Notes under the pieces: model-generated
The model's database searches: none
The model's input: the letters and a program-made list of their open reading frames with translations, nothing else
What the model was told of the DNA's origin: nothing
Virus record (IMG/VR): IMGVR_UViG_3300014047_000001
Span: 1-64,000 of that record
Strand: one strand, 5' to 3'
Source: a virus
Lineage: Duplodnaviria; Heunggongvirae; Uroviricota; Caudoviricetes
Length of the DNA stretch: 64,000 bases
In this document: positions 1-64,000 of the stretch, in pieces
Layout of the letters: each line of letters starts with the position of its first letter
How positions within the stretch are numbered: position 1 is the stretch's first letter
Program-made: the position numbers and the translations under genes

Positions 1-298
1 TGATATACCTAATACAAGTAATGTAAATCAAATAGGTTATAATATTAAAGGATCTGTTATACAAATTAACAGTATTCTTTATTTAAATACCATTATGAGC
101 AAGAAGAAAAACTTGCCGAATTATAAACTTGTATTAGATAATGAACGCTCAAAAGATAAAATATATAATACTCTTACATTATTAGTAATGGATGAAGAAC
201 CTTATTTTTTATCTATTGATTTAGCAGACATAAAGGAAATTATTAAATATAAAAAGAATATAACTATATTTGATAAATTAAAAAATATATTTAAATGA
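1..298 (+). CDS. hypothetical protein, 5' end outside window
   Basis: Frame 2 is open from position 2 into the track ORF 95..298. It ends at TGA 296-298, which overlaps the next ATG as ATGA. Confidence 0.4.
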   Translation, partial: DIPNTSNVNQIGYNIKGSVIQINSILYLNTIMSKKKNLPNYKLVLDNERSKDKIYNTLTLLVMDEEPYFLSIDLADIKEIIKYKKNITIFDKLKNIFK

Positions 299-861
299 AG
301 AATTTTCCATTTGATCATAACGGACAGGAATTTTGGTATTCACGTTCATGTACATCTGTTGCATTTGTATTTGCAAGAAGCAGAGAAACTGGTGAATGGC
401 ATGTATTAGCAAATAAAAGAGGTAAGAATGCTCCATCATGCAGAGGAATGTGGAATGTGCCGTGCGGATATTTAGATTTTGGTGAGAGAATTAGAGAAGC
501 GGCAGCTCGTGAAGCATATGAAGAAACCGGAATAAAAGTACCTGCATCATGTTTACGGTTCTTTCATATGAATGATAAACCAAAAGGGCAAAAGCAAAAT
601 ATAGCATTTTTACATTTTGGTATTTTAAATGATTATATAGAAGATTTACCATGTAATCTTGATCATATGGAACCTGGAGAAGTAGAAGAAGCTAAATGGA
701 TTCCTATTTCTCAATTAAAGAATTATAAATGGGCTTATCAGCATTATACTAAGATTATGGTGGTTTATGATACATTTGTAAATATTCCTTGGTATAAGAA
801 ATTATGGTTAAGTTTTGTATGGAGAATTACAGATCATTATAATAACATCTATACAGACTAA
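295..861 (+). CDS. Nudix hydrolase
   Basis: Nudix box G-x5-E-x7-REAYEETGI is present (GERIREAAAREAYEETGI). The ORF is intact and ends at TAA. Confidence 0.75.
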   Translation: MKNFPFDHNGQEFWYSRSCTSVAFVFARSRETGEWHVLANKRGKNAPSCRGMWNVPCGYLDFGERIREAAAREAYEETGIKVPASCLRFFHMNDKPKGQKQNIAFLHFGILNDYIEDLPCNLDHMEPGEVEEAKWIPISQLKNYKWAYQHYTKIMVVYDTFVNIPWYKKLWLSFVWRITDHYNNIYTD

Positions 862-1190
862 TTATAAAAAATAATATATAATAATTATAAATACAAATTT
901 GTATAGTTAATTTAGTATTCAACTTAATTTTCTGAATGGTTATTATGTTTGGCAAGATTCCTAAGAAATGTATTTGAAATGTTAGCAGGGCATAATGTTA
1001 AATGTTAGATATATGGAGGATGGTAAGGTTTTATGTCAACAATCCAAGCTTAATATGATTACGTAGGCATTAAAGGCGAATATAGATTAACGAAATTGGT
1101 TGGAACGTGTTTATAAAGAACACATTGGTAAATGTTGGCCGTGAGGTCAGCATTTATTTTTTATAAATATAGTATAATAAATGTGATATT
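862..1190. promoter_or_regulatory. 330-nt non-coding region with reiterated AAATGTTRG motifs
   Basis: All three plus-strand frames are closed by TAA/TGA. The motif AATGTTAG/AAATGTTGG occurs about four times between 975 and 1140. The region sits upstream of the long gene starting at 1218. Confidence 0.25.
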
Positions 1191-1217
1191 ATGAAATAGA
1201 TTATAATAAAGAAATCA

Positions 1218-3242
1218 ATGCTTTTAGAGATGGCTCGTCCTAAGGTAGAACGTACTATAGATCCACGCATATGGGCCGCTATGGCGTCACTTTGTTCACG
1301 TACCTATAAAAGTGACTTGGGAGAGTTTGCAAAGCCATTAGGGACAACGAAAGACGTGATAATGGCGAGATATGTATCAGGACTTATAATTATGAAATAG
1401 CCTTGCCCAACATCAGCAAATGACATAGATGAAATAAAAGCATTAAAGCAATATGGACATAAATTAGTTGACGAATTACATGTTCCTATTGAAGAGATAC
1501 AGACATTATATAATCAAAACTGTGGTAATTTACCAAAAGCGGAAATAAAGAAAGCATCTGCCAATAATTCTACCGGGGGATTCTTTAATCAAACAAATAT
1601 AGATAAACTTAAACAAACAAAAAAACCAAGTTTAACTGCAATAGCAAAAAAGGAAATAAAAAAATATATTACTTTTACTTATATAACACATCATGCAACA
1701 TTAGAAAAAAATGTAATTGCTGTTATATTAAAAGGTAGTGATAATCTTACATATTTCTCGTTAATATACCAACGAAAAAATAGTAGACATATTAGTATTG
1801 CTGATTATGTAGTTGATAATAAAAAAGTTCATATGATTAAATCAAAAGATTCAGATGAACTTCGTAATAATATGTTAGATGTTACAAAAAATTATATAAA
1901 TGATGATTTAAATTGCGATATAGATGATTGTGAAGTAACTTTTATAGCAAATGATTTTTCCGAATTATATTCAATATTAAATAATAATTTTAAGGAAATT
2001 ATAAATTTCTTAGAAGATCATATTGATGATATTGATACCACACAAAATACAAGAATAGAAATAGGTACACCTTTATATGCTAATTTATATAGAAAAGAAA
2101 AAGGATATGGGTAGGATGCATAGAGTTATTCTATAGATGATATAAGTGGCAAAGAGGTAGAGTTTAATGATTATGGATATACATATAAATCTATAAAAGT
2201 TGGAGAATGCATAGATATTTCCGGATCATATTATAAATTCTTATTAGATGTTAATAAAGTTGTTACATCAGTAGAAAGAACAAGTAGTATGAATAGAAGC
2301 GATAATTATTATTCAAAAGGGGTAAAATCGTTATATTCTCAAAATACAATAACAAATTATGTTCCTAAATATAAGATTCCTTATTATACTACTGCTGCAG
2401 ATGCAAAGAAAGATTTTGACGGTATAATGAATAGCATATTATTATCTAATAATTTTGATAATTATTCATTTAGCTATGGAGGTAATTGGATGATTGCTGG
2501 AGAATATTTAAGAGCATCATGGTCATATTATGATTTTAATGCAATATCATTAAAAGGTGGACAATATTTGCCGGCATTAGGAGAACTTATAAAATTATAT
2601 AAGAAAACTCCTGCTATGCAAAAACTTTCAGGTTTTTGGTGGAGTTCTACTCCTGCAGATAAAACAAAATTCTGGACATATGATGGCAGTAGAGCAAAAG
2701 CATTAGATATAATAAAAGATATGGCGCATGTTTCCCCTATAATTGCAATAAAGAAAAATAATATAGAGTGGGTACAATTAAATAATTATTTACGATTAGA
2801 TCCTATACAAATATATAGAGGTGATCCAACTAATTTTAGAATGAAACCAGTGGTAAAATTAACATTAGATGATATTAAGAAAAAATATAATTCATTATCT
2901 CTTATCACTCCAGTATTGAAAAAATATATGAAAGAAAAGGTTCCAATGGCAAGTGAAAACAGATATGAATTTATGCATAGAGATATGTTTAATAATCATT
3001 GGAATTATACAATAAATGGTATTGAATTATATAAAAATGAATTATTTTTCAATTACTGGACAGGCGGGGATTCTACTGATGAAGATGGTTCTATTTCTTT
3101 CGATGAATTACCACGATATGCGGGTCAGAGAAGTAAAATACATGCAAGACATGCAGGAACTACCATGACATTAGAATATGAAGATATGTTGTTAACAGCA
3201 TAGAAGTTCTTATATGAGATAATTAAAAAATATGGAGAATAA
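1218..3242 (+). CDS. hypothetical large protein (~675 aa) read through TAG codons
   Basis: Track ORFs 1218..1400, 1833..2114 and 2289..3203 are all frame 0 and separated only by TAG (1398, 2112, 2121, 3201). The first TAA is at 3240-3242. An alternative ATG lies at 1191. Confidence 0.55.
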
Positions 3243-3245
3243 CTT

Positions 3246-7786: not shown

Positions 7787-9982
7787 ATGGCAAGAATTCG
7801 TAGACAATATGATATAAGAAGCAATGCTTTGGATAAACAGTCAGAGAAAGAAAAGCGCTCAAAGATTTATACATCAGAAATAATAGAAGAAATATTAAAA
7901 GATAAAACCGGTAAATAGGATTTAAATCCATTTTGGCATGGTCAAATAAATTACAGGGATTCTGGCGTTATTTTTGAGTATACTGATTGGGAAAAACATG
8001 AATTAGAAAAATGTGCAGATGATTGTTTATACTTTGCAGAGCATTATGCAAAATTTAAGAATGATAAAGGACACACACTTGTAAAACTTCGCGATTATCA
8101 AAAGCGTTTGCTTAGATTATTCAGTGAAGAAGAATATGATCCTGTATCTGAAACAGTTATTCCAAAAAATTCAAGAGCAATACTTCTTTAGAGTAGATAG
8201 ACTGGTAAGACAACAACAGTATGCTGTTATTTTACCTGGTTCCTTATATTCCATGATGATAAGACAAGTTTCGTGTCTGCAAATAAAGGATCAACTGGTA
8301 AAGAAATTATAAGTAAGATTAAAGACGTTCTTGAAGGTTTGCCATTCTTTATGAAACCTGGTATATTGAACCTTAGTGAAACTCGTATAAAATTTGAAAA
8401 TGGTTCATCGCTAAAAACAGCAGCAGCTTCTAAATCTCCTGCTACTGGTGATTCTTTACAGTTATTATATATTGATGAGGCTGCCCTTATTCCTGCACAT
8501 ATTATTGATGAATATTGGGCATCTATTCAGCCAACAATGTCTTCATTTAGAGGTAATCAGATTATATTTTCATCTACTCCACGCGGTAAAGGTAATTTAT
8601 TCTATAACATATATACAAAAGCAATTCCTTGGGATTCTCCGGCAAGAAAAGATCCAGCAAATAAAAATAAGTTTGTTAGCTCTCGTGTAGACTGGTGGGA
8701 AGTTCCTGGTCGTGATGAAGAATGGGAAAAACAACAGAGAGATGAATTAGGAGATGAGAAGTTTAATCGAGAATTTGGATTATCTTTTGAATCATCTACT
8801 ACACGTCTTATTAATGCATGGACTATTAATTTCATGAATAAAATTAAGAAACACTTTGTTTCAAGACCATTATATAATGTTCCTAATGATATATGTGAAA
8901 AGATTATATGGCACCCGGATTTTGATCCAAACTCATTAACATTATATGATTTGCTATATAATATATTCTTATTTGTTATTGACTTAGCACAAGGTATAGA
9001 AGCAGGTGTTGCAGGTAAAGAAGATGCAGACTATAATATTATACATATATATCGTATAGAATTGATGTCGCCAAGGAAGATAGAAGAAAACCGAGATTGG
9101 CAACATCCTATTGATATACGTAATGTTATACAATATAAAGAAATTGGTATTTATGCAGATAATTTTAAAGATGAGGAAATGTGTGCAGAAGCATGCAAGT
9201 ATTTAGCATTCAATGTATTTAAAACAGGATATAGTGACGGTGTGAATAATATTGATAATGTACGAATTTTATATGAAGTAAATTTCAATGGTAAAAACTG
9301 GTATAATAAATTTAAAGCACATCCGGGTTTTTATGATCAGATTATTATAAAAACACAAAATGGGGTAGATAAGAACGGAAATCCTGTACTTATGAATGGT
9401 TTCAGAACAAAGAATGGTTCAAAAGGAAAGAAATACTATTGTGATTTGGGAGAAAAAATGTTACGTCAACGTTAGATTATTGTGTCACAATATGATTCTA
9501 ATATTAATCTGTCTACAATATATCAATTAGAAAACTTTGGTAAAGATAAGAAAGGTAATTATAATGGAGCTGCTTGCCATGACGACTTATCTATAACTGT
9601 ATTTTTTGTAAGTATTGCTGGTGAATAGGAATATTTCAGAATATGGGTTGAAGAATGGTTAGAGAATATGATATTGACTCCAAAAGTTTAGATAATCCGC
9701 CAGATGTTAGAAATGTATGTAGAAACTGAACCAGAAATTACTGATCAAGAATTTACGGGATTCTATAATATGGCATCTGCTGGATTTGGTAAGATTACAA
9801 AACAGAGTAATTCATATAGTTCTTTAATGAATGGTAACAATACAAATAATTATGGATTATAGTAGCCGAGATATGGTAATATGCAACCGCGATATGGCAA
9901 TATGTAGCCGAGATATAATGGAATGCCTTATTAGTCTTAGCGAAATATAGCAGCAATGTCCAGATTTGTTAAATTTAAATGA
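7787..9982 (+). CDS. terL: terminase large subunit (T4 gp17-like)
   Basis: ATG at 7787 is in frame 2 with track ORF 8273..9475. The Walker A SRQTGKTTT, matching the T4 gp17 SRQLGKT motif, has its conserved Gln encoded by TAG. A Walker B-like LLYIDEAA follows. About 11 in-frame TAGs are present, and the gene terminates at TGA 9980-9982. Confidence 0.8.
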
Positions 9983-10081: not shown

Positions 10082-10261
10082 ATGGAAATAAAGTTTTGTA
10101 AAGAGAAAATAAATCAAGGTGATTGTCAAACTTGCACACGTTATAAATCAAATAGTTATGATTATACAATAAAATGTACAGTTACAGATAATGATATTAT
10201 TAATGATTTTCAAGGCTTTTATTGTCCATTATATAATAATGGCGAACCTATAAAGATTTAA
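10082..10261 (+). CDS. small Cys-rich protein
   Basis: 59-aa ORF (MEIKFCKEK...), below the track cut-off. It ends at TAA. Confidence 0.3.
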   Translation: MEIKFCKEKINQGDCQTCTRYKSNSYDYTIKCTVTDNDIINDFQGFYCPLYNNGEPIKI

Positions 10262-10267
10262 TAGTTT

Positions 10268-10573
10268 ATGTTATATGTAAAACCACATGGATATTATTAT
10301 GTTGAAGGCATCGGCTGTATTAATTATGCAGATATTCAACATGGTTTAATTTCATGTTATAATGGATGCCCATTTTTTACACAATGTGATTCAGATGAAA
10401 GAAGTTATTGTAAAGCAAATACAGACACAATATTTCTTAAACTTATAGTAAAATCTGGTCATGTTATAAATGTTCCATATAAGTATTATAATGAATTTGC
10501 AAAGCATTGCAAATATTTGGGTATGCCATTATATGATATAAAGGTAGGTCAAAAATTAACAGCAGAACCATAA
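10268..10573 (+). CDS. Cys-rich hypothetical protein
   Basis: 101-aa ORF. Confidence 0.45.
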   Translation: MLYVKPHGYYYVEGIGCINYADIQHGLISCYNGCPFFTQCDSDERSYCKANTDTIFLKLIVKSGHVINVPYKYYNEFAKHCKYLGMPLYDIKVGQKLTAEP

Positions 10574-10974
10574 TGGCAACAATAAATGATATTTCTGGAA
10601 ATATTATAAAACAAACAGTAAAAAAAGCTTTAGAAGAAGCTTTTATAGAAGAATCATTTAAAGAAAAAACAAATGAATCTCAAAATAAATTATGGGATAA
10701 AGATAAACTTATATTAATATTCTATATTGGTATTGGAGGTATTAGTCAACAAAAAGCATATGAAATATTACAAAATATAAGTCATGAAATAGAAGATATG
10801 TTTGATGAATCGGTTAAATCAATTATTATGCCTGTAAGAGATAGAGGCGATATAAGGGTAGAACCAATTTATATGCAGACAATTACAAATAATGAAGATA
10901 ATAATCGTTTAATGGAAACAATTAATAAATTAGAACGAGCAGTAAAAAACTTATATGATACACAAATCGCTTAA
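10573..10974 (+). CDS. hypothetical protein
   Basis: 133-aa ORF. Its start overlaps the stop of the previous gene. Confidence 0.45.
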   Translation: MATINDISGNIIKQTVKKALEEAFIEESFKEKTNESQNKLWDKDKLILIFYIGIGGISQQKAYEILQNISHEIEDMFDESVKSIIMPVRDRGDIRVEPIYMQTITNNEDNNRLMETINKLERAVKNLYDTQIA

Positions 10975-11512
10975 TAAAACAAAGGAACGTCAGAGACAAT
11001 ATGACATAGCATATATGAAGATGGCAGAAGCTTTTGCTACTTTAAGTTATGCAAAGAGAAAACAGGTTGGTGCAATTATTGTTTCTAAGAATGATCAGGT
11101 CATTTCACAAGGGTTTAATGGTACTCCTCATGGATTCTCTAATATATGTGAAGAGATTCTATTTGCTGATGATGTTAAATTAAACTTGGATAATGATATT
11201 GAAAAGTTTAATGCATATGCAGATAATCTTGCTGCAGGTACATGGCAAAAAATGTCAGAGATTCCATATAGACTAAAAACAAAACCTGAAGTATTACATG
11301 CAGAGACTAATGCTATTACTAAATGTGCAAAATACAGTAATTCTACAGAAGGTGCAACATTATATGTAACATTAGCTCCATGTTTGAATTGTGCAAAGCT
11401 TATTGTTCAGGCGGAGATTGCAAGAGTAGTATATAAGGAATATTATAATGAGGATGCAGGACTTAATTTCCTTAGATCTTGTGGGGTGGAGGTCGTAGAG
11501 TTAACATATTAA
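10955..11512 (+). CDS. dCMP deaminase
   Basis: Zinc-binding HAETNAI and PCLNC motifs of the cytidine/deoxycytidylate deaminase family are present. There are no internal TAGs. Confidence 0.75.
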   Translation: MIHKSLNKTKERQRQYDIAYMKMAEAFATLSYAKRKQVGAIIVSKNDQVISQGFNGTPHGFSNICEEILFADDVKLNLDNDIEKFNAYADNLAAGTWQKMSEIPYRLKTKPEVLHAETNAITKCAKYSNSTEGATLYVTLAPCLNCAKLIVQAEIARVVYKEYYNEDAGLNFLRSCGVEVVELTY

Positions 11513-11514
11513 AT

Positions 11515-11787
11515 ATGGAAAATTATAAAGTCAATAAAGTTATAACGTTTTTCAATGGTTCTGAAATATTAGAGACTGAAAAATTTCAGTTGCATTCACC
11601 AGATGAATTACAGGATGCATTAAAATTGTGTATTGCAGAAACAATGAAGCAATATAAAAGCGAAAGAGTAGATGATGTTCGTTTTTATGGATTAGAAAAA
11701 GTTGAATATTTAGAAGTAAAGAATATTCTTCCAGAAGATATTAGGGAAGAATATATTTTAAATTTATACCACCAAATTAATAAGTAA
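11515..11787 (+). CDS. hypothetical protein
   Basis: ATG at 11515 is in frame with track ORF 11479..11787. Confidence 0.4.
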   Translation: MENYKVNKVITFFNGSEILETEKFQLHSPDELQDALKLCIAETMKQYKSERVDDVRFYGLEKVEYLEVKNILPEDIREEYILNLYHQINK

Positions 11788-11790
11788 ATT

Positions 11791-12165
11791 ATGATTACAT
11801 TTGTTATTGCTATTTTTTTACTTTTATTGTGTTATAACATTGTTAACAGAACCGTGTTTATTAATACATGTACATTTAAAGTTAAGAAACATTCAAAAAT
11901 TAAAAATTTTTATATTCTTTTGTTTCTTATAAATTTATTGTTATTTTTATTTAATAATACTATATATTGTATTATTGGCTGTAGTGCATTAATAGCTATA
12001 TGGATAATAAACAATATTTTATGTACAATATGTTCAAAACAATTAAATAAAAATGATAATTATTGTGATATTTGTATTGCAGTACGTTTGAAACATAAGA
12101 ATATATTTGATAAGATTATTCTCTTTATTCTTAAATGGATTAATGGAATTAAAAAGGTAAAATAA
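11791..12165 (+). CDS. small membrane protein
   Basis: 124-aa ORF with two hydrophobic segments and a Cys-rich tail. Confidence 0.45.
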   Translation: MITFVIAIFLLLLCYNIVNRTVFINTCTFKVKKHSKIKNFYILLFLINLLLFLFNNTIYCIIGCSALIAIWIINNILCTICSKQLNKNDNYCDICIAVRLKHKNIFDKIILFILKWINGIKKVK

Positions 12166-12971
12166 TGGCATATATTTCTTTTAATTATAAAGCAATACCA
12201 AAAAATCAGAATTCTCGTGGAAACAATATTGTTACACATGATTTCCCAGAAGAATATATTGTATCAATGGATGATATTGTATTAGATAACAGGGATGAAA
12301 CAATAGGTGCATTAAGGCAGTCTTATTTATATATGGATAAGACAGATTATAATTATATCAAACCTGTTATTATATGGCCAACACATACATTAAATGTTAT
12401 AGATGATTCTGACTATGAAGGTGCATTTATTGTTAGAACAATAGATGAGCGTGATGTTTTATGCTATATAGAAAAATGTGGAGAGGAATATAGATTGTGG
12501 CCTATTGATTATTTAATTCCTTGGAAACAACGAGTTAATCATGAAGAATTAAATCATATTTTTGTTTATAGGTTTCCAAAAAGAAACATCAAATGTTTTC
12601 TAAAAAAAGAAGACTATGAAAAAGATTTGTCTAAAAAATGCAAACATGCTGAAAAAGAATATGGGAAATATGTAGACAAAAAAGAAGAATTGTGTAATAT
12701 TCCTACATTTGCGTTAACAAGCCCGCAGTTTAAAATTATTTCAGTGGTTAAAAAAACTAAGTGGCTAACAGCAAAAGAAGGTGATGTTATTTATGGAAGC
12801 TTGCCTGTTATTGAAACAGATAATCAAGGGGTTGCACATAAACTTTTAAAAGGAATAGGAACACAGACAAATTATATAAATGTATATGTAAATGGAAAGT
12901 TTGAAAGACAAATGGGTCCATTAGATTTTCCGAAATTATTTTTAGAAAATTATAAAGTCGAAATTATATGA
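12165..12971 (+). CDS. hypothetical protein (paralog of 23627..24448)
   Basis: 268-aa ORF. Clear similarity along its length to the 273-aa ORF at 23627, for example FKIISVVKKTKWLTAKEGDVIYGSLPVIETDN against FKIEKIIKETEWTSAKEGDTIYGEIPVITKDN. Confidence 0.55.
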   Translation: MAYISFNYKAIPKNQNSRGNNIVTHDFPEEYIVSMDDIVLDNRDETIGALRQSYLYMDKTDYNYIKPVIIWPTHTLNVIDDSDYEGAFIVRTIDERDVLCYIEKCGEEYRLWPIDYLIPWKQRVNHEELNHIFVYRFPKRNIKCFLKKEDYEKDLSKKCKHAEKEYGKYVDKKEELCNIPTFALTSPQFKIISVVKKTKWLTAKEGDVIYGSLPVIETDNQGVAHKLLKGIGTQTNYINVYVNGKFERQMGPLDFPKLFLENYKVEII

Positions 12972-13264
12972 AAAAGTTTATATGGTTATTTCTATGTAGT
13001 ATTTTGTTCATATCTTGCGATGGTTTTTCTCGAGGGAAAGCTGCAGTAGAAGCTAAAACAGAAGATGGTAAAGAATACTTAGATATTAACGGACGCAGAT
13101 ATTTTAAAATAAAAGTATTTGACCATGATGCTTATCAGTGTATTTTTGATACACACGGAAGCTGGGGTTCGGATATAATTCATTTTTATGATAGATGTGA
13201 TTTCTGTAAAAAACATTTAAAGGATTATAAAGATTATACAAGTAATACAGATTTAATTAACTAA
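12968..13264 (+). CDS. small lipoprotein
   Basis: Signal peptide with a lipobox (LFISC). Confidence 0.45.
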   Translation: MKKFIWLFLCSILFISCDGFSRGKAAVEAKTEDGKEYLDINGRRYFKIKVFDHDAYQCIFDTHGSWGSDIIHFYDRCDFCKKHLKDYKDYTSNTDLIN

Positions 13265-13281
13265 TTTAAATTTAAACAACA

Positions 13282-14191: not shown

Positions 14192-14228
14192 AAGATCTAC
14201 TTATTAATTTAAGTAGATCTTTTTTAAT
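14192..14228. terminator. rho-independent terminator (bidirectional)
   Basis: Perfect 12-bp inverted repeat AAGATCTACTTA-TTAATT-TAAGTAGATCTT followed by TTTTTT. Confidence 0.55.
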
Positions 14229-14710
14229 GTATTCATTATATTATTAATAAAGCTAAGTATATAAAATTTATTAACAAATATTCTTTCCAATAATCCTTTC
14301 TTTTTCTTGCCATTAAATATTTCACCCTGTTCAATTTCGCCTGCTTTATATTTCTTAAAATCTCCTTGCCTTCCTGTTACAGATTTACCTGTTTCATTTG
14401 ACCATCTCTAATATACTTTTCTTGATTGTTTTGTAAAATGATCCAGACCTTTTTTACATATTTTAAAATATTGTTCTGGATCACATCCTATTAGTTCTTT
14501 TATCTGCTCTATTAAGAATGGTTTATATTTGAAATAATAATCATCTTTCTTTTTAGATCTGTATATATTTAATAGCCAATTAAAATTCTTAATGGTTTCC
14601 GCTATTTTCTTTGCCGTATCTGTATCTTTTATATTCTCTGAATATTGTGCTTCTGTATAAATTTCCTACAACCATGCAGCTACTTCATCTTTATCAAATC
14701 GATAATAAAC

Positions 14711-15580: not shown

Positions 15581-15986
15581 AATATTATTCATATTTTATA
15601 AATTATTTATTATATGAAATAAATATTAAAAATATTTGTAAATAGTATAATGATGTCTTTAAAGAAGTTTGATAATAATATAAATGTGCAAAATTATATA
15701 GAAAGCCATATTAATAAAAATATAATTATCACTAAACCAAATGCAGAAAATCCTGATAAAAAAGATATAATATACCATCGTGCTGGTGATATGGAAATAT
15801 ATACATAATTGCAGATCCTGAAGAAGACATATATTAGCTACACTTATACCAACATATGATGGAATGTGCTTTGCATTACAAGATTTACAATCATGTGGTT
15901 TGCCAAAGATGGTATAAGTGGCGTTGCCAACCAATAATGCAGTAGTATTAATAGACTTTTTTAAATATGTTAATATAATCTTTATT

Positions 15987-16940: not shown

Positions 16941-16942
16941 TT

Positions 16943-18474: not shown

Positions 18475-18477
18475 ATT

Positions 18478-51100: not shown

Positions 51101-51944
51101 TAACATTATATTTGCATAATACTTGATTTCCTTCTAATATTGTCATTGTCCAGTTATACTTACCTAAGTTTTCTGAGTAATAATCATCTTTTCCCACCCA
51201 AATATCATAACCCGTAGAACCTGCCGGTACTATTAATGTACCTCCAGACTTAATACCTTGGAATGTATTTGGATATATTGATGGAGCAGTTATCACATTA
51301 CATATTATATTCGCAAGTGCAGAGCAATTATTGAATGCACCATAACTAATATCTGAGATTGAATTACCTATTGTTACATTTATAAGTCCAGAACAATCAG
51401 CAAATGCACCTGCACTAATTGATGTTACTGAATCTGGTATAGTTATGCTTGTAAGTCCAGAACAATATTGGAATGCGGCAGAATTAATATATATTACAGA
51501 ATCTGGTATAGTTATACTTGTAAGAGCAGAACAACCAGAGAATGCACCTGGACCAATTGAGGTAACTGAGTTGCCTATAATTACGTTTGCAAGTGCAGAA
51601 CAATTTTCGAATGCTCCTGTATCTATTGATGTTACACCATCTGCTAATGTAAATAAAACGGTATGTTCACCAGTTGTATTAAATATATATGATTTTGTAA
51701 CTTCTTTTTCTTCATCATCCACTATCATTGAACTAAAATTATTAGAACTATTAAATAATGCTGTTGAAGTATTAATATCAGTAACATTATATTTGCACAA
51801 TATTTTAGATCCGGTAAAAGGATTAAAATAAGGTTTATTCTAATCTTCACATAAAGATACATTGGGTAAAATAAATTTTGATATATCAGATGCATAAGCT
51901 TGATATTCCTATACAGTATTAAATAATTTTATGTATCTCCCCAT
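48123..51944 (-). CDS. BspA-type leucine-rich-repeat (LRR_5) surface/receptor-binding-like protein (1274 aa)
   Basis: The 1225-aa track ORF has no internal TAG. An upstream in-frame ATG at 51942-51944 is reached across two TAGs. About 22-aa repeats (F..C..L.S(V/I)TIP.SVTSIG..AF) are organised in four modules of about 300 aa, each opening with NQVLCKYNVTS...TTGEHTVLFTL. The gene ends at TAA. Confidence 0.65.
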
Positions 51945-51974
51945 TTTACTAATTAATTATTTATTATATTTATT

Positions 51975-52026
51975 TAATATTATATATAAAATAAAAATGT
52001 GCTACCATTAAAGAATGGTGCACATC
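51975..52026. terminator. terminator hairpin (AAAAATGTGCTAYCA core), copy 2
   Basis: ATGTGCTACCATT-AAAG-AATGGTGCACAT, with a T-run on the minus strand. It lies 3' of the minus-strand lipoprotein gene and 5' of the LRR gene. Confidence 0.45.
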
Positions 52027-52066
52027 ATCGGCATTTATTAAAATAGTTTTTGTGTAATCTTGCTAA

Positions 52067-52252
52067 TTACTCAGCTACGACTGTATCAACTGCTGCTGTG
52101 TCAGCAACTACAGAATCTACTGCAGCTGAGTCAACGACAGTAGTATCTACTGCAGTACTATCTGCATCAGCAGCACCAGCAACGCTGTTACCGCAACCTA
52201 CGAATGCACTTACTGCAACAAATAATGCCATTGTGTAAAAAAGCTTCTTCAT
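52067..52252 (-). CDS. small repeat lipoprotein
   Basis: Signal peptide with a lipobox (AFVGC), followed by four copies of a 7-aa (A/T)AVD(S/T)(V/T)V repeat. Confidence 0.4.
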   Translation of the reverse strand: MKKLFYTMALFVAVSAFVGCGNSVAGAADADSTAVDTTVVDSAAVDSVVADTAAVDTVVAE

Positions 52253-52267
52253 AATTTTTTAATTTAA

Positions 52268-53452
52268 TTAATTTTTGTTATTATTTATTTTTATATCTGA
52301 CATAAGATTTAATAAATCCATTTCAAAGTCAGAATCTAATATTATATCATCTTTTATAATTTTGTCTATACTTTCAGAAGTATTTTCATTATTTTCTTTT
52401 GATTTTCCTATTCCATATATTATATCATAATATATTTCATACATCTTCTTTAGCATCCTTGCTAAAATTCTTTTATAATGTGTTCCTAACTTTGATAAAA
52501 GTTTCAAACCATCACCTTGCACATTTATATGTATATTCCGTGTTTTAAAAAGTTTTATAAATACCTCTCTATTTTTTAAAATAATGTCATCTAATAGATC
52601 TAGATCAATTTTATTTATATTATTCCAGAAAATATATAATGCTCTATAAATTCTAAATATACTTATATCATAATATGTAAATGATAAAATATTCTATACA
52701 TTTGCTGCCCATTGGTCAGATCTGGTAAGTTTATTATAATCTTTTTTTAATAGATTTGTTTTTTCAAATGCATCTATAATTTCATCTATATGGCTTTGTG
52801 CTAACATTTTTAATGAAACCGCATACTCCTATAAAAATGCTTGTACTTCTCCCGGATTAATATAATATATAGATTTAAATATAGTAGATGTAATATATTC
52901 TTCATCTGTATATATTTTCTAATTCACTTCTAAATAATCATGACTCCAATTTGCAATAAGTGGACATTTGTTAGCATATTGTATACCCAATTTATATAAA
53001 TCATTATCAATATCATATAAACCGGTATTTGTTGTTTTCTTTATATAATCTGTATAAGCATGACGGAATTCATGGGTGAGCTCTTTAAAAAATTGCTCAT
53101 ATGATTTTCCTGAATGATCAACAATAGCAATAGTAAAATCTAATTTATTATTATTTAATACTGCATCATGTTTATAACATGCAGAATATATTTGATTATT
53201 ATACTCTTCTATTTCTATATAGAAATTGCCTATCCAATTAGGAATAATAGAATTATCAAATAATTGGTTATTTTTATATTTCCAATAGCTTTTGAGTATA
53301 GACATAGTAATAATAGGCTATTCAGACGGATTTAAATCTATATAATTATTTAATCCGTCTTCTGCATCATATATATAGTCTGCAATAAGTTTTACTAATT
53401 TATCTGTTATTTTTAACTAATCTGTTAAAATGCCATGAGATTCATTTATCAT
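52268..53452 (-). CDS. HExxH zinc-metallopeptidase-like protein (394 aa)
   Basis: Track ORFs 52268..52522 and 52919..53305 share a frame, joined through several TAGs. It is extended to an ATG near 53452 across two more TAGs. HEFRH motif present. Confidence 0.5.
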
Positions 53453-53589: not shown

Positions 53590-54192
53590 ATGGCAGATAC
53601 AACTAGTAATGGTTTAATGAGATTACCACACTTTACAAGTTCTAAAGTCAGCATGGACAAAGACGAACCTATATACACTAACCTGTTCACTATCACGTTA
53701 GTCCCACCAGCATCTATTGCAAATGAAAATGATTAGGATACGTTGGTAGTTCTTGAAGGTATCAAGAGTATATCTGGTTTGAATACACAGCCAGGTAATG
53801 GTACAGTATCTCAGAAGTATAAGTTTGCTGAGCGTATGTTCGCAGGTCCAGCACCATCTCAGACACACTTGACATTGAATATAGCATTCCAGCTTAATGT
53901 CCGTCCTGGTGTTGCATCTGATGAAAACTATACTTATAAGTTCTTGCGTAAGTGGCATGACCTTGTATATGATCCATTGACAGGTCGTATGGGTATCAAG
54001 CAAGAATATGCTGCATCTAGTATGACAATTACAATGCAAGATCGTAGGGGTGTTCCATATTGGCAGTGGATTTGTTATAACGTTTGGCCTTCTGGTCAGC
54101 TTAATGGTCCAGATCTTTCATATGACGGTGGGCAGATTATGGAAGCACAGTGTCAGTTTGAGGCAGACTACTTCGATGAATCAATTCTTTAA
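53590..54192 (+). CDS. tail tube protein (T4 gp19 family)
   Basis: ATG at 53590 is in frame with track ORF 53743..54192, across one TAG. The NLFTITL motif corresponds to gp19 NLFQVEI. GC content is higher here. Confidence 0.6.
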
Positions 54193-54258: not shown

Positions 54259-54513
54259 TTAAAATAGAGTAATTGCTCCAAAGAATACAATAGATGAAAT
54301 TATAATATATTTTATAATTTCTTTTATTGATGCAGTTTCTCTATTTTCATCAAACAATTTCATTTCTTTCCTTGCAGGATTATCTTTGAAATGAAAATCC
54401 CAATCGGTGAAATTACTTTTTGTTGGATTCATTGCAAACACTTTTTCCCAAGGTGTATTTGCATTTACATTACTTGTTATCTGTACAGGATAACCATTAG
54501 AATAATCTATCAT
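54259..54513 (-). CDS. tail-anchored small membrane protein
   Basis: 84-aa ORF with a C-terminal transmembrane segment. It overlaps the stop of the HD gene. Confidence 0.4.
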   Translation of the reverse strand: MIDYSNGYPVQITSNVNANTPWEKVFAMNPTKSNFTDWDFHFKDNPARKEMKLFDENRETASIKEIIKYIIISSIVFFGAITLF

Positions 54514-55169
54514 ACAATCTCATTTGTTTTTAAATCATACTCAGTTTCCATCAAGAATGATGCAAAGCAATCTGCTTGTGCAATAACCATTACAAGAGGT
54601 ACATCATTAATAGCCTTCATAAAAGCAGGTTTTTCATAGAATGAAAGGAATGTGCCAGGATCTGTAAATCCCATATGCCATCTGATTGCAAGAATTTCTT
54701 CACCCGTTAAACGAATAAATTGCTGTGCAATCAATACAGACTTTTCTCCATGTCCCAATGGAAATGTATCATTAATATCATATGCGATATATTTCTTCCA
54801 TTGATTACCATATGGTGCATTTTCATCCTTCCATGTTTTTATAGCAGGTACATAATAATTAATCTTACACAAATCATGAAGCAATGCAGCAACTATAAGA
54901 GTTTCATCACTAATAGAATCAATATTCTTTTCTGGTAAAGCAATATCCTTCATATTGTCTCTAATCTTTACTGCAGCTTTATATACATTCAATGAATGTG
55001 CAAGTAATCCGCCCTTACAATTATTATGATACTTAGTAGAAGATGGTGCTTCATAAAAATCACATTTATCTAGCCATTCTATTAAGTTCTCAATACCTGG
55101 TCGTTGAACAGAAGACAAAAGCTGTTTATACACTGCCTTCATTTCTTCTAATTGTAAATTTGTAAACAT
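54510..55169 (-). CDS. HD-domain phosphohydrolase
   Basis: H...HD motif (LLHDLCK) plus downstream His and Asp residues typical of the HD superfamily. Confidence 0.65.
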   Translation of the reverse strand: MFTNLQLEEMKAVYKQLLSSVQRPGIENLIEWLDKCDFYEAPSSTKYHNNCKGGLLAHSLNVYKAAVKIRDNMKDIALPEKNIDSISDETLIVAALLHDLCKINYYVPAIKTWKDENAPYGNQWKKYIAYDINDTFPLGHGEKSVLIAQQFIRLTGEEILAIRWHMGFTDPGTFLSFYEKPAFMKAINDVPLVMVIAQADCFASFLMETEYDLKTNEIV

Positions 55170-55184
55170 ATCTAAATTAATAAT

Positions 55185-55535
55185 TTATTCTAAATTAACT
55201 AATAAACTTCCTACTTGATCACATTTATTAGGTTCTTCTAATATCTTTTCTTTTGTTAACCTGTATAATTCTGGTCGATTTTTTAAATCCTTCTTTGGTA
55301 TATTTGTTGCCATTAATAAGCAAAGTAAAACATGCAAGTCTAGCTCTTTTGCTTCTGACATAATAGACAGCAAAAATTTATCTATTGCTTTTATACTTTT
55401 CCATTCAAACATAAAAGACTTATATATATGATACATTACTTCATTAATAATGTTTAAGTCTGAAAGTTTTTCATCAGACAATACATAATATCTTAATGCT
55501 TCTGGTGTATATACTTTATTTGATTCCTTTATCAT
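55185..55535 (-). CDS. hypothetical protein
   Basis: 116-aa ORF ending at TAA. Confidence 0.45.
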   Translation of the reverse strand: MIKESNKVYTPEALRYYVLSDEKLSDLNIINEVMYHIYKSFMFEWKSIKAIDKFLLSIMSEAKELDLHVLLCLLMATNIPKKDLKNRPELYRLTKEKILEEPNKCDQVGSLLVNLE

Positions 55536-55929
55536 TATTCTTAAATATAGAAAATTTTATACCATCAATAGGATCAAAATATACAGTGAATTGCATTTTC
55601 TCTAAAAATTTCTTATATCTATATCCCCATTCATTTTCTCTGCGTATATCATCTTCTACCAATTTAACTCTAAATTCATATGTGCCGGGAGTATAAGAAA
55701 TTATATTAAGCTCATCCTTATCTTTTCCTACAAGCTTGATAATTATTTTATTTGTTGTTTTATCATATTTTACTGAGCCTTTTTGATATTCGATTCTGCA
55801 TAACAAAGTAAAAACAAGATCTTCAAATTGCTTAAAATCTTGTTTTGACAGCATTTCATCTATATCATTATCTTCCCAAGATATTAAAAGATTTACTGCC
55901 CTTGCAAAATCTGGTTCAATAAATTTCAT
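55516..55929 (-). CDS. hypothetical protein
   Basis: 137-aa ORF. Confidence 0.45.
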   Translation of the reverse strand: MKFIEPDFARAVNLLISWEDNDIDEMLSKQDFKQFEDLVFTLLCRIEYQKGSVKYDKTTNKIIIKLVGKDKDELNIISYTPGTYEFRVKLVEDDIRRENEWGYRYKKFLEKMQFTVYFDPIDGIKFSIFKNNDKGIK

Positions 55930-56240
55930 TTTATTTCGTTGTTTATGAACATTTTATTAAATGTATACTTATCATCCTTTAATTTGTTATAATAACTATC
56001 TGCTTCTGGATGCTCTGTTGTTCGTTGAATAGAATTCAATAAAGTATCAATAGCTTGGTTCTTTGTTATACGAGCAAGTTTCAAAAGATGATTAAAGAAT
56101 GCATATGATGATTCATCCTCAAACGGATTATTAGAATGCAGAGCTGTATGTGTATCAGCATAATCCTTTAATACCTATGCCATAAAAGACAAATAAAAAG
56201 GATTATTTGTATCCAATAATAGATTTTGCATATTTTCCAT
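55928..56240 (-). CDS. hypothetical protein with one TAG
   Basis: About 104-aa ORF (MENMQNLLLD...) hidden from the track by a TAG. Its TGA overlaps the ATG of 55516..55929. Coordinates are approximate. Confidence 0.3.
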
Positions 56241-56348
56241 TATTATAATAGATGTTTCTGATTATAGCATTTTATAGAAAAAAGTCTGATTATAAAAACT
56301 TTATTTTTATTTCTTATATATTATATTAGTAACAAATTTGAAAAGTAT

Positions 56349-57239
56349 ATGATTAATCAAGTAGATTTAAGAGCATATAAGAGTGTAAAATATGTAGGCG
56401 ATATACATGGCTTATTTAAAACACTTGTATTCGATGCTATAGACCGTAGAAAATATAAGGATTGCCTTATAATTGTCTGCGGTGATATTGGTTTTGGGTT
56501 TGTTTCTTTCAAGAAAGAAAAAGAGAATTTGATATATCTTGAAAGAGATTTAGCAAAAAATAACATTTGTTTAGCATTATTTAGAGGCAATCATGATGCA
56601 CCAGATGTTTTCAAAGTAGATAATCCTTGGAGATTGTCTATTGAGGAGATATGTCCGCATATTAAGATTATTCCTGATTACTCCATTCTTAATACTGTTG
56701 ATGGTAATATTTTGGTAGTTGGTGGAGCACGTTCTATTGACAAGGCAAATCGTATTCCAGATTATAGCTGGTGGGCAGATGAAATGGTACAACCAGTACC
56801 AGAGAATTTTTATCAGGAGTTGAATGATAACAATATTAAGATTAATGTTGTTTGTACACATACATCTCCTATATTCTGTAAGCCTTTTAATCCTTCTAAA
56901 GATGATCAGGGATATTTTGTAGAGCAGTGGTCAAAGTATGATGATACATTAAAAGAAGATAATTGGGTAGAGCGTTGTGCATTGAAAATTATGTATCAAG
57001 ATTTAGTGAATAATGGACATCCTATTACTTACTGGATTTATGGTCATTTCCATGATCATTTTGAATTGGAATATGAAGGCAGAAAATTCATAGGCCTTGA
57101 TATGTGTTACCAGAATAAGCGGAGAGTTGATGTAGAGGATCCAAGTACCTATGAAGTAGTTGAAACTTATTATAAAGTATTAGATGATTGGTATTGGCTT
57201 TCTGAAAAAGGAAAAATTGGCAATAGAGTAGAGAAATGA
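56349..57239 (+). CDS. calcineurin-like metallophosphoesterase
   Basis: GDIHG, GDxGxG and GNHD motifs are present. Confidence 0.65.
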   Translation: MINQVDLRAYKSVKYVGDIHGLFKTLVFDAIDRRKYKDCLIIVCGDIGFGFVSFKKEKENLIYLERDLAKNNICLALFRGNHDAPDVFKVDNPWRLSIEEICPHIKIIPDYSILNTVDGNILVVGGARSIDKANRIPDYSWWADEMVQPVPENFYQELNDNNIKINVVCTHTSPIFCKPFNPSKDDQGYFVEQWSKYDDTLKEDNWVERCALKIMYQDLVNNGHPITYWIYGHFHDHFELEYEGRKFIGLDMCYQNKRRVDVEDPSTYEVVETYYKVLDDWYWLSEKGKIGNRVEK

Positions 57240-57391
57240 CATTACATGATTTAGATGAGATAAAAGATTATATAAAAAAGAATCTGAAAATAGAGCATAG
57301 ACAATTAAAGATGGGTTCTACTAATACAGTAGAAATTATTCTTAAATTGGATAATCAAGAAATAAGTACAACCAAATTTTCAATAGTTTAA
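57236..57391 (+). CDS. small hypothetical protein
   Basis: 51-aa ORF in ATGA overlap with the previous gene, below the track cut-off. Confidence 0.3.
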   Translation: MTLHDLDEIKDYIKKNLKIEHRQLKMGSTNTVEIILKLDNQEISTTKFSIV

Positions 57392-57392
57392 T

Positions 57393-57878
57393 ATGGAAAA
57401 ATTAGAAAAGATAGGTTTTTATCCTGGTAGTTTTGATCCTTTTCATGAAGGTCATAGCTATATTGTAAATATGGCATTAGATATTTTTGATAAAGTAATT
57501 ATATGTATTGCTATTAATTCTGACAAGACTCCATTCTTTCCTTATAAGCAAAGAGAAGATATTATTAAGGAAATATACAAGGATAATGATCGTGTGGAAG
57601 TAGTATTATGTGATGGGCTAGTTGCTATGAAAGCAGCAGAACTTAATGCTTCTGCAATTATTAAAGGAGTAAGAGATGAAAAAGATTTTGGATATGAAAT
57701 GAAACAAGCAGATTGTAATATGTTTATTAATCATATTCCTACTGTTTTTATTCCAAGCAGTCCAAACCTTTCATTTATAAGCAGTACATTAATTCGTGCA
57801 ATTATTACTGGAGTAAAGGATAAAAAGAAAATTCATGATATGCTTTTGGGCATAGTTAATAGAAAGTTTTATGAGTAA
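57393..57878 (+). CDS. cytidylyltransferase-fold nucleotidyltransferase (PPAT/NMNAT-like, HxGH)
   Basis: N-terminal GFYPGSFDPFHEGH is a CoaD-like YPGSFDP motif with the PFHxGH of NadM-type NMN adenylyltransferases. Confidence 0.6.
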   Translation: MEKLEKIGFYPGSFDPFHEGHSYIVNMALDIFDKVIICIAINSDKTPFFPYKQREDIIKEIYKDNDRVEVVLCDGLVAMKAAELNASAIIKGVRDEKDFGYEMKQADCNMFINHIPTVFIPSSPNLSFISSTLIRAIITGVKDKKKIHDMLLGIVNRKFYE

Positions 57879-58173
57879 AATTGATTGGAATTTGATGCAT
57901 CTCGTTGATAAAGATTTACGAGAAGCTATAGGTATAGAATCACGTGATTGGAAATTTAATAATAGTCCTGCTGGAATGATTAATGTCGCAAGACGTGAGA
58001 AAAAACTTGATCCATTCCATTATTTACGAGAAGCTGTTAGTTATATTTTATTACAGAAAACATCAACAATAGAAGATGAAGAAGAAGCAGCAAAGTTTAT
58101 GAACAATGGAATACATGGATTTAGTGTATTCATTGAAGAAAATGAAAATCTTAAAAAGTTTTTAGATTCTTGA
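57871..58173 (+). CDS. hypothetical protein
   Basis: 100-aa ORF. Confidence 0.45.
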   Translation: MSKIDWNLMHLVDKDLREAIGIESRDWKFNNSPAGMINVARREKKLDPFHYLREAVSYILLQKTSTIEDEEEAAKFMNNGIHGFSVFIEENENLKKFLDS

Positions 58174-58236
58174 CTTTGGATAAACTATTATTTGATTGTT
58201 AAATATAATTAATGTATCAAAAAATAATTTAGAAAA

Positions 58237-58794
58237 ATGAGAGAGAATATTAATAAACGTGTATAGTTTACTAAGTCAAGAAATGTAAAAACTCCAGTTC
58301 GTGCCAACCGTCATGACGCTGGTACGGACTTTTTTGTACCTTTTTATGATCAGCAATTTATTGAAGATATGCTGATTAAGAATAAGGATAATAGAATTTT
58401 CTATAGACCTATTCTTGATGAAAATAATACTGTAGTAGATATGGAATTTGTTATTCCTGCAGGAGAGCAGATTAACATCCCTTCTGGTATTCATGTATGG
58501 ATTCTTGATAAGTCTACATTCCTTCAGGCTACTAATAAATCTGGTGTAGCATCAAAGTTTCATTTGGATGTAATGGCAAATACTATTGATGCAGATTATC
58601 AGGGTGAAGTGCATATCAACTTAAGTAATAATGGTAATACAGAAATTACTATTAAGACTGGTCAGAAGCTTGTACAGTTTATTCATAAGGAATATATTGA
58701 TACAGAATGGGAAGAAATTTCTACAGATGATTATGCAAAGATTGATGTATCTGACAGAGGATCCGGTGCATTTGCAAGTACAGGAAGTTTTTAA
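58237..58794 (+). CDS. dut: dUTPase
   Basis: ATG at 58237 is in frame with track ORF 58369..58794, across a TAG at 58264. Motifs DAGTD and C-terminal RGSGAFASTG are present. Confidence 0.7.
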
Positions 58795-58813
58795 AATTAA
58801 TTATTAATTAACC

Positions 58814-59959
58814 ATGATAGCAGTACCTGATAACTTATTGTTACAACCACATATACAAAAGGTATTAAATGCTTATAAACATCAGTATAATCAGAATTCT
58901 TATGGTGGATTATATATAAAATCTATTACAACAGAATTAAATTATTATGAGGTGTTAGATGGTGCTGAAACTTATAAGCGTGGTAAAGTAAAAGAATTTT
59001 TATATAAGATTACAAATTTTTTTGGCCTTACTAATAAAAATTTGGAATATGTGGAATTTAATATTTCTAATTTACGTAATTGGGTATATTATCCAACTTT
59101 CGATCCTAAACCAACAGAAGTTGGTATTAAACGATTTGAATATGAATATAGAGAATGTAATTGGAGTAAACGACCTACATTTACTTTTGATATACCAAAG
59201 GTATTAAGTGAAATGCATAATATACCTATAATAACCCGCCAAATGGTTATTGATGCTATTAATAAAGCATTACATATATCAAATAATCAATTGACTTTAT
59301 ATGTAAGAAACGTGGAAGTTGATGGAAAACCTTGTACTATTAAATTTATATTTGACATTGTTAGCTATGATACAAATTATGTTCCTATAGAAGATGATAT
59401 AACTAAACTTGGCCAAGAAGCACTTACAAACTTCTTATCAAATGTTAAGAATCATGCAATGCTGACGAAGATAAACAGTATAGAAAATGGCAAAGTTAAT
59501 ATTGCAAAAGACGGTACAGAAACATATGTATTAGACGAATATATACCAAGTATAGAAGAAATGATAATGTTCTCAGATTTTGCATTAAAACAAAATGGTA
59601 TAGAGTTAAAGTCATTCTTTAAGAAAAAACTTGAAAATTATGAACGTACTGAGTTACAAGCATTTTATGATAAAAGTCAATTATTGAATTATATAGATCC
59701 TAAAACAATATTTAATGAAGCTGCAGCAGATAAGGAAGATGATATTAAGCCAAAGGCAGTAAAGACACGTGTTAGAAAAAAGAAAGAAGAAACAAAAAAA
59801 GAAACTGCCGAAGAGAAAGTCATTAAAGACACAAAAGTTAAAGTAGCAAAAACAACCACAAAAACCACAAAAACCACAAAGGCTACTAAGAAAAAAGACG
59901 ACGAAAAAGAAAAGAAAATAACAAGAAAGACTGCAGCAAAAAAGAAGAAGGAAAATTAA
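58814..59959 (+). CDS. hypothetical protein with Lys/Thr-rich basic C-terminal tail
   Basis: 381-aa ORF. A tandem 9-nt ACAAAAACC repeat encodes TTKTTKTTK. Confidence 0.5.
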   Translation: MIAVPDNLLLQPHIQKVLNAYKHQYNQNSYGGLYIKSITTELNYYEVLDGAETYKRGKVKEFLYKITNFFGLTNKNLEYVEFNISNLRNWVYYPTFDPKPTEVGIKRFEYEYRECNWSKRPTFTFDIPKVLSEMHNIPIITRQMVIDAINKALHISNNQLTLYVRNVEVDGKPCTIKFIFDIVSYDTNYVPIEDDITKLGQEALTNFLSNVKNHAMLTKINSIENGKVNIAKDGTETYVLDEYIPSIEEMIMFSDFALKQNGIELKSFFKKKLENYERTELQAFYDKSQLLNYIDPKTIFNEAAADKEDDIKPKAVKTRVRKKKEETKKETAEEKVIKDTKVKVAKTTTKTTKTTKATKKKDDEKEKKITRKTAAKKKKEN

Positions 59960-62984: not shown

Positions 62985-63147
62985 CAGAAATACAAAAGCT
63001 GTATTAAAATATAAATCATTTTATGAGCAGCGTTATTTATGTGATTTCGTAAATGCATATAATGTAGAAATTGTAAGTATTATACCATATAATAATTTAA
63101 TAACATTATTTTATTATGAATCTGATACAAATTCAAAAGACGTATGA
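62974..63147 (+). CDS. small hypothetical protein
   Basis: ATG inside track ORF 62926..63147. It overlaps the end of the previous gene. Confidence 0.3.
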   Translation: MVNNRNTKAVLKYKSFYEQRYLCDFVNAYNVEIVSIIPYNNLITLFYYESDTNSKDV

Positions 63148-63440
63148 AAATAACAAAGATAGAATTTATTGAACATATTGTTCCCAAAGGGAGTTGTGGT
63201 ACCGGATATTCAGAACCTGATAAATTTCATATATATGGAGATAACGGTTTAGAAACTGATATATTAGTGGATATTTGGTATAAACAAGAAAAATATGTTA
63301 AAAGAGAATTTATTAACGGTTTAAGATGGGCTGGTTGGGATAATTGTGAAAATATTGATGAAGCATTTGAAATGTATATAAATGCATTGAAACCTACAAA
63401 CAGCTGCCCATATTATTGGTTAAAAAGACATAAAAAATGA
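63144..63440 (+). CDS. hypothetical protein
   Basis: 98-aa ORF. Confidence 0.4.
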   Translation: MKITKIEFIEHIVPKGSCGTGYSEPDKFHIYGDNGLETDILVDIWYKQEKYVKREFINGLRWAGWDNCENIDEAFEMYINALKPTNSCPYYWLKRHKK

Positions 63441-63859
63441 AAATATCTGTAGATCACGTTACATTTCCAAAGAATTCAAATGCTGAAGCACATGAACATG
63501 CCGGTATTTTTACAATACCAAATAATGACATGTTTTTCAGTAGTCCTGGATATTTCTGTAATTTATGCCTTAGTGTAGAAGGTATAAAATTTTTGGAGCT
63601 TTCTAAAAAACCATTTGATGGAATTTTTAATGTAACTGTATTAGAAGAAGATCCACCAAAAGTCCCTGAAGGAGATAACTTAAATACAGTACAAGATTTA
63701 ATAAATTATCTTTCTACATTAGATACCAAAAAATATATTAGTGGAGAATATGTTAAAATCATTCTGGATGCACATATTGGTAATGAAAGCAGACCTTTAT
63801 TGAAATCTCTTATAAAAAATGAAGGTGATCATTATACATTTGGTCCAATGATATATTAA
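63437..63859 (+). CDS. hypothetical protein
   Basis: 140-aa ORF. Confidence 0.45.
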   Translation: MKISVDHVTFPKNSNAEAHEHAGIFTIPNNDMFFSSPGYFCNLCLSVEGIKFLELSKKPFDGIFNVTVLEEDPPKVPEGDNLNTVQDLINYLSTLDTKKYISGEYVKIILDAHIGNESRPLLKSLIKNEGDHYTFGPMIY

Positions 63860-63870
63860 ATATAGGTAAT

Positions 63871-64000
63871 TATGAAAGAGCCAATTACACGTATAATAAA
63901 AGTAAGGTTTATTGATAAGGATAACTCTATACATAAATATAATACTCCTTATTATGTACGAGTTTTTAATTGGTCAATTAAAGATTTTGTTGAGCCTTTA
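63871..64000 (+). CDS. hypothetical protein, 3' end outside window
   Basis: ATG at 63871 with an open frame to the window edge. Confidence 0.3.

Follow-up and report, generated by a model that had tools for sequence, protein, structure and literature searches.

TAG as a sense codon and its modular use in a 64-kb genome segment of a probable Lak-like megaphage

TAG is a sense codon in the window

The 64,000 nucleotides analyzed here, positions 1 to 64,000 of the IMG/VR virus record IMGVR_UViG_3300014047_000001 (Caudoviricetes; hereafter the window), have a GC content of 29.5% and carry recognizable genes for the large terminase (TerL), a tail tube, a lysozyme-domain protein, a spike, and a dUTPase, all of them with in-frame TAG codons. 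An earlier note on this DNA proposed that TAG had been reassigned from stop to sense across the entire window, in the manner of genetic code 15. Gene models were built with a crude open reading frame (ORF) tiler that accepted ATG starts only and selected frames by weighted interval scheduling. Under code 11, tiling gave a coding density of 74.7%, with 111 genes averaging 144 amino acids (aa). Calling genes again with TAG as sense, as the note had suggested, raised the density to 95.8%, with 82 genes averaging 251 aa. A control tiling with TGA as sense reached only 76.0%, and one with TAA as sense was poorer than the TAG-sense tiling in both density (88.0%) and mean gene length (138 aa). In the TAG-sense models, 63 genes ended in TAA, 19 in TGA, and none in TAG, and neighboring genes shared start/stop overlaps of the ATGA (12 cases) and TAATG (4 cases) types, all in line with what had been claimed for the merged genes. 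Reassignment of TGA or TAA was rejected. These gene counts are approximate because the tiler made errors: at 33582-34064, for example, it picked two small overlapping ORFs (33659-33862 on the minus strand and 33823-34200 on the plus strand) where public gene calls and relatives favor one 159-aa plus-strand gene.

In total, 129 in-frame TAG codons were found in 29 of the 82 TAG-sense genes, the other 53 having none. The 19 genes with at least two TAG codons span 11,086 codons with zero in-frame TAA or TGA, far beyond chance at this GC content, TAA and TGA being the kind of interruption that the note had named as evidence against its reading. TAG occurred among the last five codons of 2 genes, compared to 2.6 expected. 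Frames bounded only by TAA and TGA were both long and rich in TAG (e.g., 1375, 1194, 1029, 889, and 741 codons). Five runs of consecutive ORFs had been offered as examples, and their coordinates and common reading frames were correct, as were their TAG-only gaps in all but one case. In the minus-strand run from 35004 to 38766, the stretch between ORFs 37161-37526 and 38211-38684 contains TAA,TAA as well, which is a true boundary between two minus-strand genes (34866-37526 and 37542-39104) that share a frame by chance. An exact protein match assigns the window to ENA scaffold WOLF17-1_SAMN02302770-S001_METAG-scaffold_20. Public gene calls for this source scaffold (151,201 bp) have lengths equal to those of the TAG-sense models (e.g., 1191, 886, and 413 aa), showing that the public annotation of this scaffold already treats TAG as sense. 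Within the window, TAG is a sense codon and never a terminator.

Homologous proteins align across the TAG codons. TerL (7787..9982, plus strand) is a 731-aa protein with 11 TAG codons that matches the PHROG terminase large subunit (E value, 7e-47) and has hundreds of full-length homologues. Three of its TAG codons lie in conserved columns, where 76, 106, and 95 of 120 homologues have Gln. Because many of these homologues are themselves predicted with TAG as Gln, independent evidence was sought in gp17 of T4, a standard-code phage. The Walker A region at 8183-8218 reads, as had been described, CTT CTT TAG AGT AGA TAG ACT GGT AAG ACA ACA ACA (LL*SR*TGKTTT), and a phmmer alignment (PDB 3cpe/3ezk) placed its second TAG, codon 138, at the Gln of SRQLGKT in gp17.

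Alignments of the lysozyme and tail tube also pass through TAG sites, as the note had expected of all three proteins. The lysozyme-domain protein (44895..47975, minus strand; 1026 aa, 13 TAG codons) has an N-terminal PF00959 domain at residues 14-140 (E value, 2e-18), and alignments to PDB structures run on past TAG codons 59 and 104. The tail tube (53590..54192, plus strand) matches phrog_45 (E value, 4e-11), and a match to phrog_32623 spans residues 10-198, including its single TAG at codon 49. The spike gene (17351-18112, plus strand) encodes an OB domain (PF04717) and has one TAG, at codon 7, that is also TAG in a relative (L001), with the peptide 5' of it conserved. In the dUTPase gene (58237-58794; PF00692), the single TAG is codon 10. 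Each of the four genes for which the note had placed the N terminus upstream of an in-frame TAG was thus identified, with TAG in frame.

The amino acid assigned to TAG was examined codon by codon against three syntenic relatives recovered from other samples (L001, L006, and L009), with mean protein identities to the window of 76%, 58%, and 85%, respectively. TAG stood opposite TAG in 61 aligned pairs. Among 132 non-TAG partners, half were Gln codons (66; CAA 36 and CAG 30), followed at a distance by Glu (10), Asn (10), Lys (8), Arg (8), Ser (8), and Ala (7). No partner was a codon for Tyr, Leu, Trp, Cys, or Phe, despite TAT/TAC, TTG, and TGG being single-base neighbors of TAG. A log-likelihood comparison of partner profiles gave −271 for Gln, with Lys second at −500. 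When TAG sites were counted instead of pairs, 39 of the 105 sites with an aligned relative were matched by a Gln codon in one or more relatives, and 41 had only TAG. The frequency of CAG was halved in TAG-rich genes (5.4 versus 11.0 per 1000 codons), as expected if TAG took the place of CAG. Judged from these comparisons, TAG evidently encodes glutamine.

Gene modules with and without TAG

Window-wide reassignment holds for the code itself, which applies throughout, and fails for TAG use, which is modular and patchy. The TAG-rich units are 1191-3242, 6309-9982 (with TerL), 14204-15592, 27272-33519, 34150-40761, 40840-44877, 44895-47975, 51970-53452, and 59983-61929, and the units essentially without TAG, which are enzyme coding, are 10082-14121, 15650-27160, 54259-59959, and 61966-63859. 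Most of the genes that use TAG serve packaging, the virion, or lysozyme function, and most nucleotide-metabolism genes are TAG free. This pattern agrees with the TAG-free regions found beside TAG-using structural regions in Lak phage genomes (PMC6784885) and with the published description "multiple alternatively-coded modules" (bioRxiv 10.1101/2021.08.26.457843).

Two TAG-using modules lie on opposite strands in the middle of the window. The plus-strand module at 27272..33519 contains genes at 27272-28135 (1 TAG), 28137-31712 (1191 aa, 11 TAG), 31709-32242 (1 TAG), and 32278-33519 (4 TAG), the last with a weak major-head-like match. The minus-strand virion module at 34150..40761 contains genes at 34150-34854 (3 TAG), which matches a tail-sheath-like PHROG, 34866-37526 (886 aa, 5 TAG), 37542-39104 (520 aa, 6 TAG), and 39106-40761 (551 aa, 2 TAG). 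Next to it, on the plus strand, a repeat-rich protein of 1345 aa (40840..44877) has 21 TAG codons, the maximum in the window; most of these are also TAG in relatives L008 and L009, and five are opposite CAA or CAG there. Neither Pfam nor PHROG gave a match to this protein, whose degenerate repeats follow the pattern D(Y/F)SWAT(x)D.

TAG codons in the genes leading up to TerL are often paired with Gln codons in L001. A hypothetical protein of 683 aa (1191..3242, plus strand) has 5 TAG codons, of which four are CAG in L001, and the partners of TAG are mostly CAG or CAA in the TAG-rich genes at 6309-6965 (plus strand, 6 TAG) and 6962-7729 (minus strand, 3 TAG). Downstream of TerL, the plus-strand block at 10082..14121, encoding a dCMP deaminase, a Band_7 protein, and others (Pfam names taken from the syntenic genes of L001), has no TAG and is the same in both codes. 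The plus-strand block at 15650..27160, with PNKP-like and AAA ATPase genes, is mostly TAG free; only three of its genes contain TAG, and only near the 5' end, these being the spike gene, 18478-19080 (codons 13 and 18), and 25199-25435 (codon 7). The sole minus-strand gene within this plus-strand TAG-free territory (14204..15592, 462 aa) has 7 TAG codons.

A further minus-strand unit at 51970..53452 combines a short Gln-rich ORF of 65 aa with a gene of 394 aa, each containing 5 TAG codons. HExxH-like motifs (HELKH and HEFRH) occur in the TAG-rich minus-strand genes 14204-15592 and 52268-53452, and there are hints in their sequences that the two may be paralogous metallopeptidase-like proteins. 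The region at 54259..59959, with genes on both strands, holds mostly TAG-free enzyme genes (HD and CTP-transferase-like) and includes the dUTPase gene. It is followed by two paralogous minus-strand genes, 59983-61020 and 61045-61929, with 4 TAG codons each, the second of which is a DUF285 protein (PF03382; E value, 8e-78). The two share a nearly identical N terminus of about 25 residues and have differing bodies. One repeat of the DUF285 gene has TAG where others have Tyr or Phe (SMSqMF versus NMxYMF).

One large gene departs from the surrounding pattern. At 48123..51944 on the minus strand lies a BspA-type leucine-rich-repeat (LRR) protein of 1273 aa (PF13306; E value, 8e-271, in 11 stretches), whose TAG codons are limited to codons 12 and 35, the 1238 codons that follow being free of TAG. 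The gene is absent from the syntenic site in the closest relatives, L008-L011, and is therefore a lineage-specific insertion. Its GC content at third codon positions (GC3), 0.15, is like that of the phage's own genes. The assertion that standard-code calling fragments every large structural gene does not survive here, since the standard code still leaves an ORF of 1238 aa in this gene. Standard-code annotation does fragment TerL, virion proteins, and the lysozyme, and the sequence must therefore be called with translation table 15.

Relatives and decoding machinery

Neither a megablast comparison of 28-48 kb with GenBank phages nor scans of IMG/VR with a TerL peptide pattern and an exact 44-mer produced any match. 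At the protein level, the nearest named TerL sequences are those of Prevotella phages Lak-A/B/C, which are 42-43% identical across 94-99% of the query, and TerL of Wendovervirus sonii (Grandevirales, Epsomviridae) is 54% identical over 69% of the query. Homologues of the 520-aa virion protein are encoded by W. sonii and by contigs of Lak size, and relatives of the window are carried on contigs of 299-674 kb, the contig of the closest large relative measuring 299 kb. By best matches, the hallmark proteins appear to group with Lak phages (Grandevirales), and the window probably represents a distinct lineage of gut phage with kinship to the Lak megaphages.

Likeness to the Lak megaphages, both Lakviridae (e.g., Prevotella phage Lak-A/B/C) and Epsomviridae (e.g., W. 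sonii), extends to the use of TAG as Gln and to the alternation of TAG-free regions with TAG-using structural modules. Lak-C1 and the window both have low GC (25.8% versus 29.5%), and reading TAG as sense raises the coding density of Lak-C1 from 64% to 90%, a jump similar in size to that of the window. The lineage is nonetheless distinct from that of the Lak phages, the window having no nucleotide-level match among GenBank phages and a TerL only 42-54% identical to theirs, and unlike its closest relatives, it carries the BspA-type LRR gene. In TAG-recoded phages of the crAss-like group (Crassvirales) and in other gut phages with code 15 (e.g., Garnet, Amethyst, and phAss-1), TAG has likewise changed to Gln, and recoded codons are clustered in structural and lysis genes as in the window, but these phages belong to unrelated lineages whose genomes are much smaller. 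Proof by proteomics of the assignment of TAG to Gln comes only from crAss-like phages (PMC9523058).

Components that could decode TAG were found in relatives. ARAGORN and Rfam searches detected no tRNA genes or Rfam families in the window or in approximately 10 kb beyond its end, no suppressor tRNA(CUA) was found in the window or loci L001-L005, and a GGQ-motif scan detected no release factor in the window, in approximately 10 kb beyond, or in neighboring loci. The mechanism is therefore drawn from relatives. In a scan of the 540-kb Lak-C1 genome, the anticodon CUA was found on two tRNAs and UUA on one. One of the CUA tRNAs matches the phage tRNA-Gln(CUG) in its U1-A72 acceptor end, A73, and D-arm. 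The tRNA(UUA), which reads TAA, lies at 4126-4198 on the minus strand of locus L017 and is reported for all Lak genomes. A gene resembling release factor 2 (RF2), itself free of TAG, is likewise present in Lak-C1, and its product combines PCRF and RF-1 domains with an SPY motif; the homologues listed in a search with it were 98-100% identical Lakviridae proteins named "peptide chain release factor 2." These findings agree with published work on Lak phages, for which code 15, TAG-free regions, tRNA-CTA, and RF2 have been described (Devoto 2019 and Crisci 2021; PMC6784885, PMC8346664). In phAss-1, a suppressor tRNA(CUA) is annotated.

Together, these comparisons indicate that the window very probably derives from a Lak-like megaphage (Grandevirales related) using code 15. 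In it, TAG is Gln and genes end in TAA or TGA alone, and the phage would supply its own suppressor tRNA and RF2. The host, judging from relatives and the literature, would be a standard-code member of the Bacteroidota. A phage-made, Gln-type suppressor tRNA with anticodon CUA would compete with host release factor 1 (RF1) at TAG, phage-made RF2 would keep termination at TAA and TGA going, and TAG-containing genes would yield full-length protein only after both had been made. The E. coli supE-type tRNA-Gln(CUA) is a GlnRS-charged derivative of tRNA-Gln that competes with RF1 at UAG, and by analogy the same decoding chemistry may operate here. In supE strains, however, suppression is partial and TAG is still a stop in the genome, while in the window TAG never terminates and sits in essential motifs. 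Regulation of late genes is a published hypothesis for TAG recoding (bioRxiv 10.1101/2021.08.26.457843).

Several observations weigh against this picture in whole or in part. Neither the tRNA nor the release factor it calls for was detected within the regions searched, and the gene models come from a crude tiler. At 25 of the 105 aligned TAG sites, the relatives have non-Gln residues only, which is expected of variable positions, yet leaves Gln unproven site by site. The timing step in particular is complicated by the dUTPase, an enzyme gene that carries TAG, and by the remark in the Borges preprint (bioRxiv 10.1101/2021.08.26.457843) that most Lak replication genes use the alternative code, so that the split between early and late genes is not clean.

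Position of TAG within genes and competing explanations

TAG is not evenly placed along the genes that contain it. In TAG-containing genes of the window, the first 50 codons hold 38 of 129 TAG codons, compared to 32 of 348 CAA or CAG codons (odds ratio, 4.1; P = 1.5e-7), and the density of CAA plus CAG is flat along the same genes. With the first 20 codons removed, codons 20-49 still have 20.7 TAG per 1000, versus 8.1 past codon 50 (P = 0.001), and a paired test of genes of at least 300 codons also detected the 5' bias (P = 0.008). Among genes with a single TAG, 7 of 10 have it at codons 2-10. Early TAG codons in the window include those at positions 17369, 58264, 27299, 25217, and 57853. The bias recurs in Lak-C1 (loci L012-L022), where TerL is only 42% identical to that of the window, with 22.2 versus 13.0 TAG per 1000 (P = 3e-9) and a paired test across 117 long genes giving a P value of 0.016. 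Beyond codon 20, no 5' enrichment of TAG was found in phAss-1, an unrelated code-15 phage (15.5 versus 14.1 per 1000; P = 0.57), in a test of whether the bias is general to code-15 phages. Over-extended start codons as the sole cause were also rejected, because the bias outlasts removal of 20 codons and many 5' TAG codons lie inside conserved, aligned N termini.

It is conceivable, though we regard it as doubtful, that the position of TAG is selected in Lak-like megaphages and that an early TAG is a cheap translational gate for timing. Without the suppressor tRNA, ribosomes would abort after a few residues; with it, full expression would follow. Genes that are otherwise standard in code, such as those for the spike and dUTPase and others, would be gated by a single TAG at codons 2-10. 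GC3 is also higher at the 5' ends of genes in both the window and Lak-C1, however, so a general rare-codon ramp explains the TAG bias as well as a selected gate does.

A somewhat unlikely alternative to any role in timing is that TAG is always sense and has no regulatory effect, its patchiness resulting from AT-biased mutation of CAG to TAG that has gone less far in conserved or recently acquired genes. The scarcity of CAG where TAG is common, the free interchange of TAG and CAG among relatives, the near absence of TAG from the inserted LRR gene, and the presence of TAG in some enzyme genes (dUTPase) would all follow from such mutation. Mutation alone fits less well with TAG-rich and TAG-free blocks that track function and often strand, as in the lone minus-strand gene at 14204-15592, with the 5' bias of TAG in genes whose CAA plus CAG content is flat, or with CAA being the partner of TAG as often as CAG.

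The remaining explanations deny the glutamine assignment or the sense reading itself. That TAG specifies some other residue (Tyr, Leu, Trp, Lys, Glu, or pyrrolysine) is very improbable. ARAGORN labels the Lak-C1 CUA tRNAs "Pyl," a label given by convention, and N, K, E, R, or S does stand opposite TAG at some variable sites, but the partner counts (Gln 66; Y/L/W/C/F 0) and a log-likelihood margin of 229 favor Gln, TAG falls opposite the T4 gp17 Gln that is invariant in the Walker A motif, and one of the Lak-C1 CUA tRNAs resembles a phage tRNA-Gln. Least credible of all is the view that TAG truly terminates translation, with the fragments being pseudogenes, assembly errors, or products of low-level programmed readthrough. 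This would account for the many short ORFs seen under standard-code calling, but not for genes that are broken only by TAG and never by TAA or TGA over 11,086 codons, for the conservation of TAG at 61 positions in relatives that were assembled independently and came from different samples, or for TAG inside essential motifs such as Walker A; in addition, no gene requires TAG as its terminator. Pseudogenes and assembly error were rejected on the TAG-only interruptions and the conserved TAG sites. The reading of TAG as sense advanced in the earlier note is thus supported.

Code 15 is already established for the Lak group, having been reported in 2019 and extended in 2021-2024, and the existing picture is unchanged by the window. 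The sole element that may go beyond published work is the 5' positional bias of TAG, of which a text search found no mention in those parts of the recoded-phage literature that it covered, a result that is no proof of novelty. For phage biology, the window extends, by one lineage related to Lak, the set of phages whose genetic code differs from that of their host. If the 5' bias is selected, it would also back the idea of recoding as a timer of gene expression.

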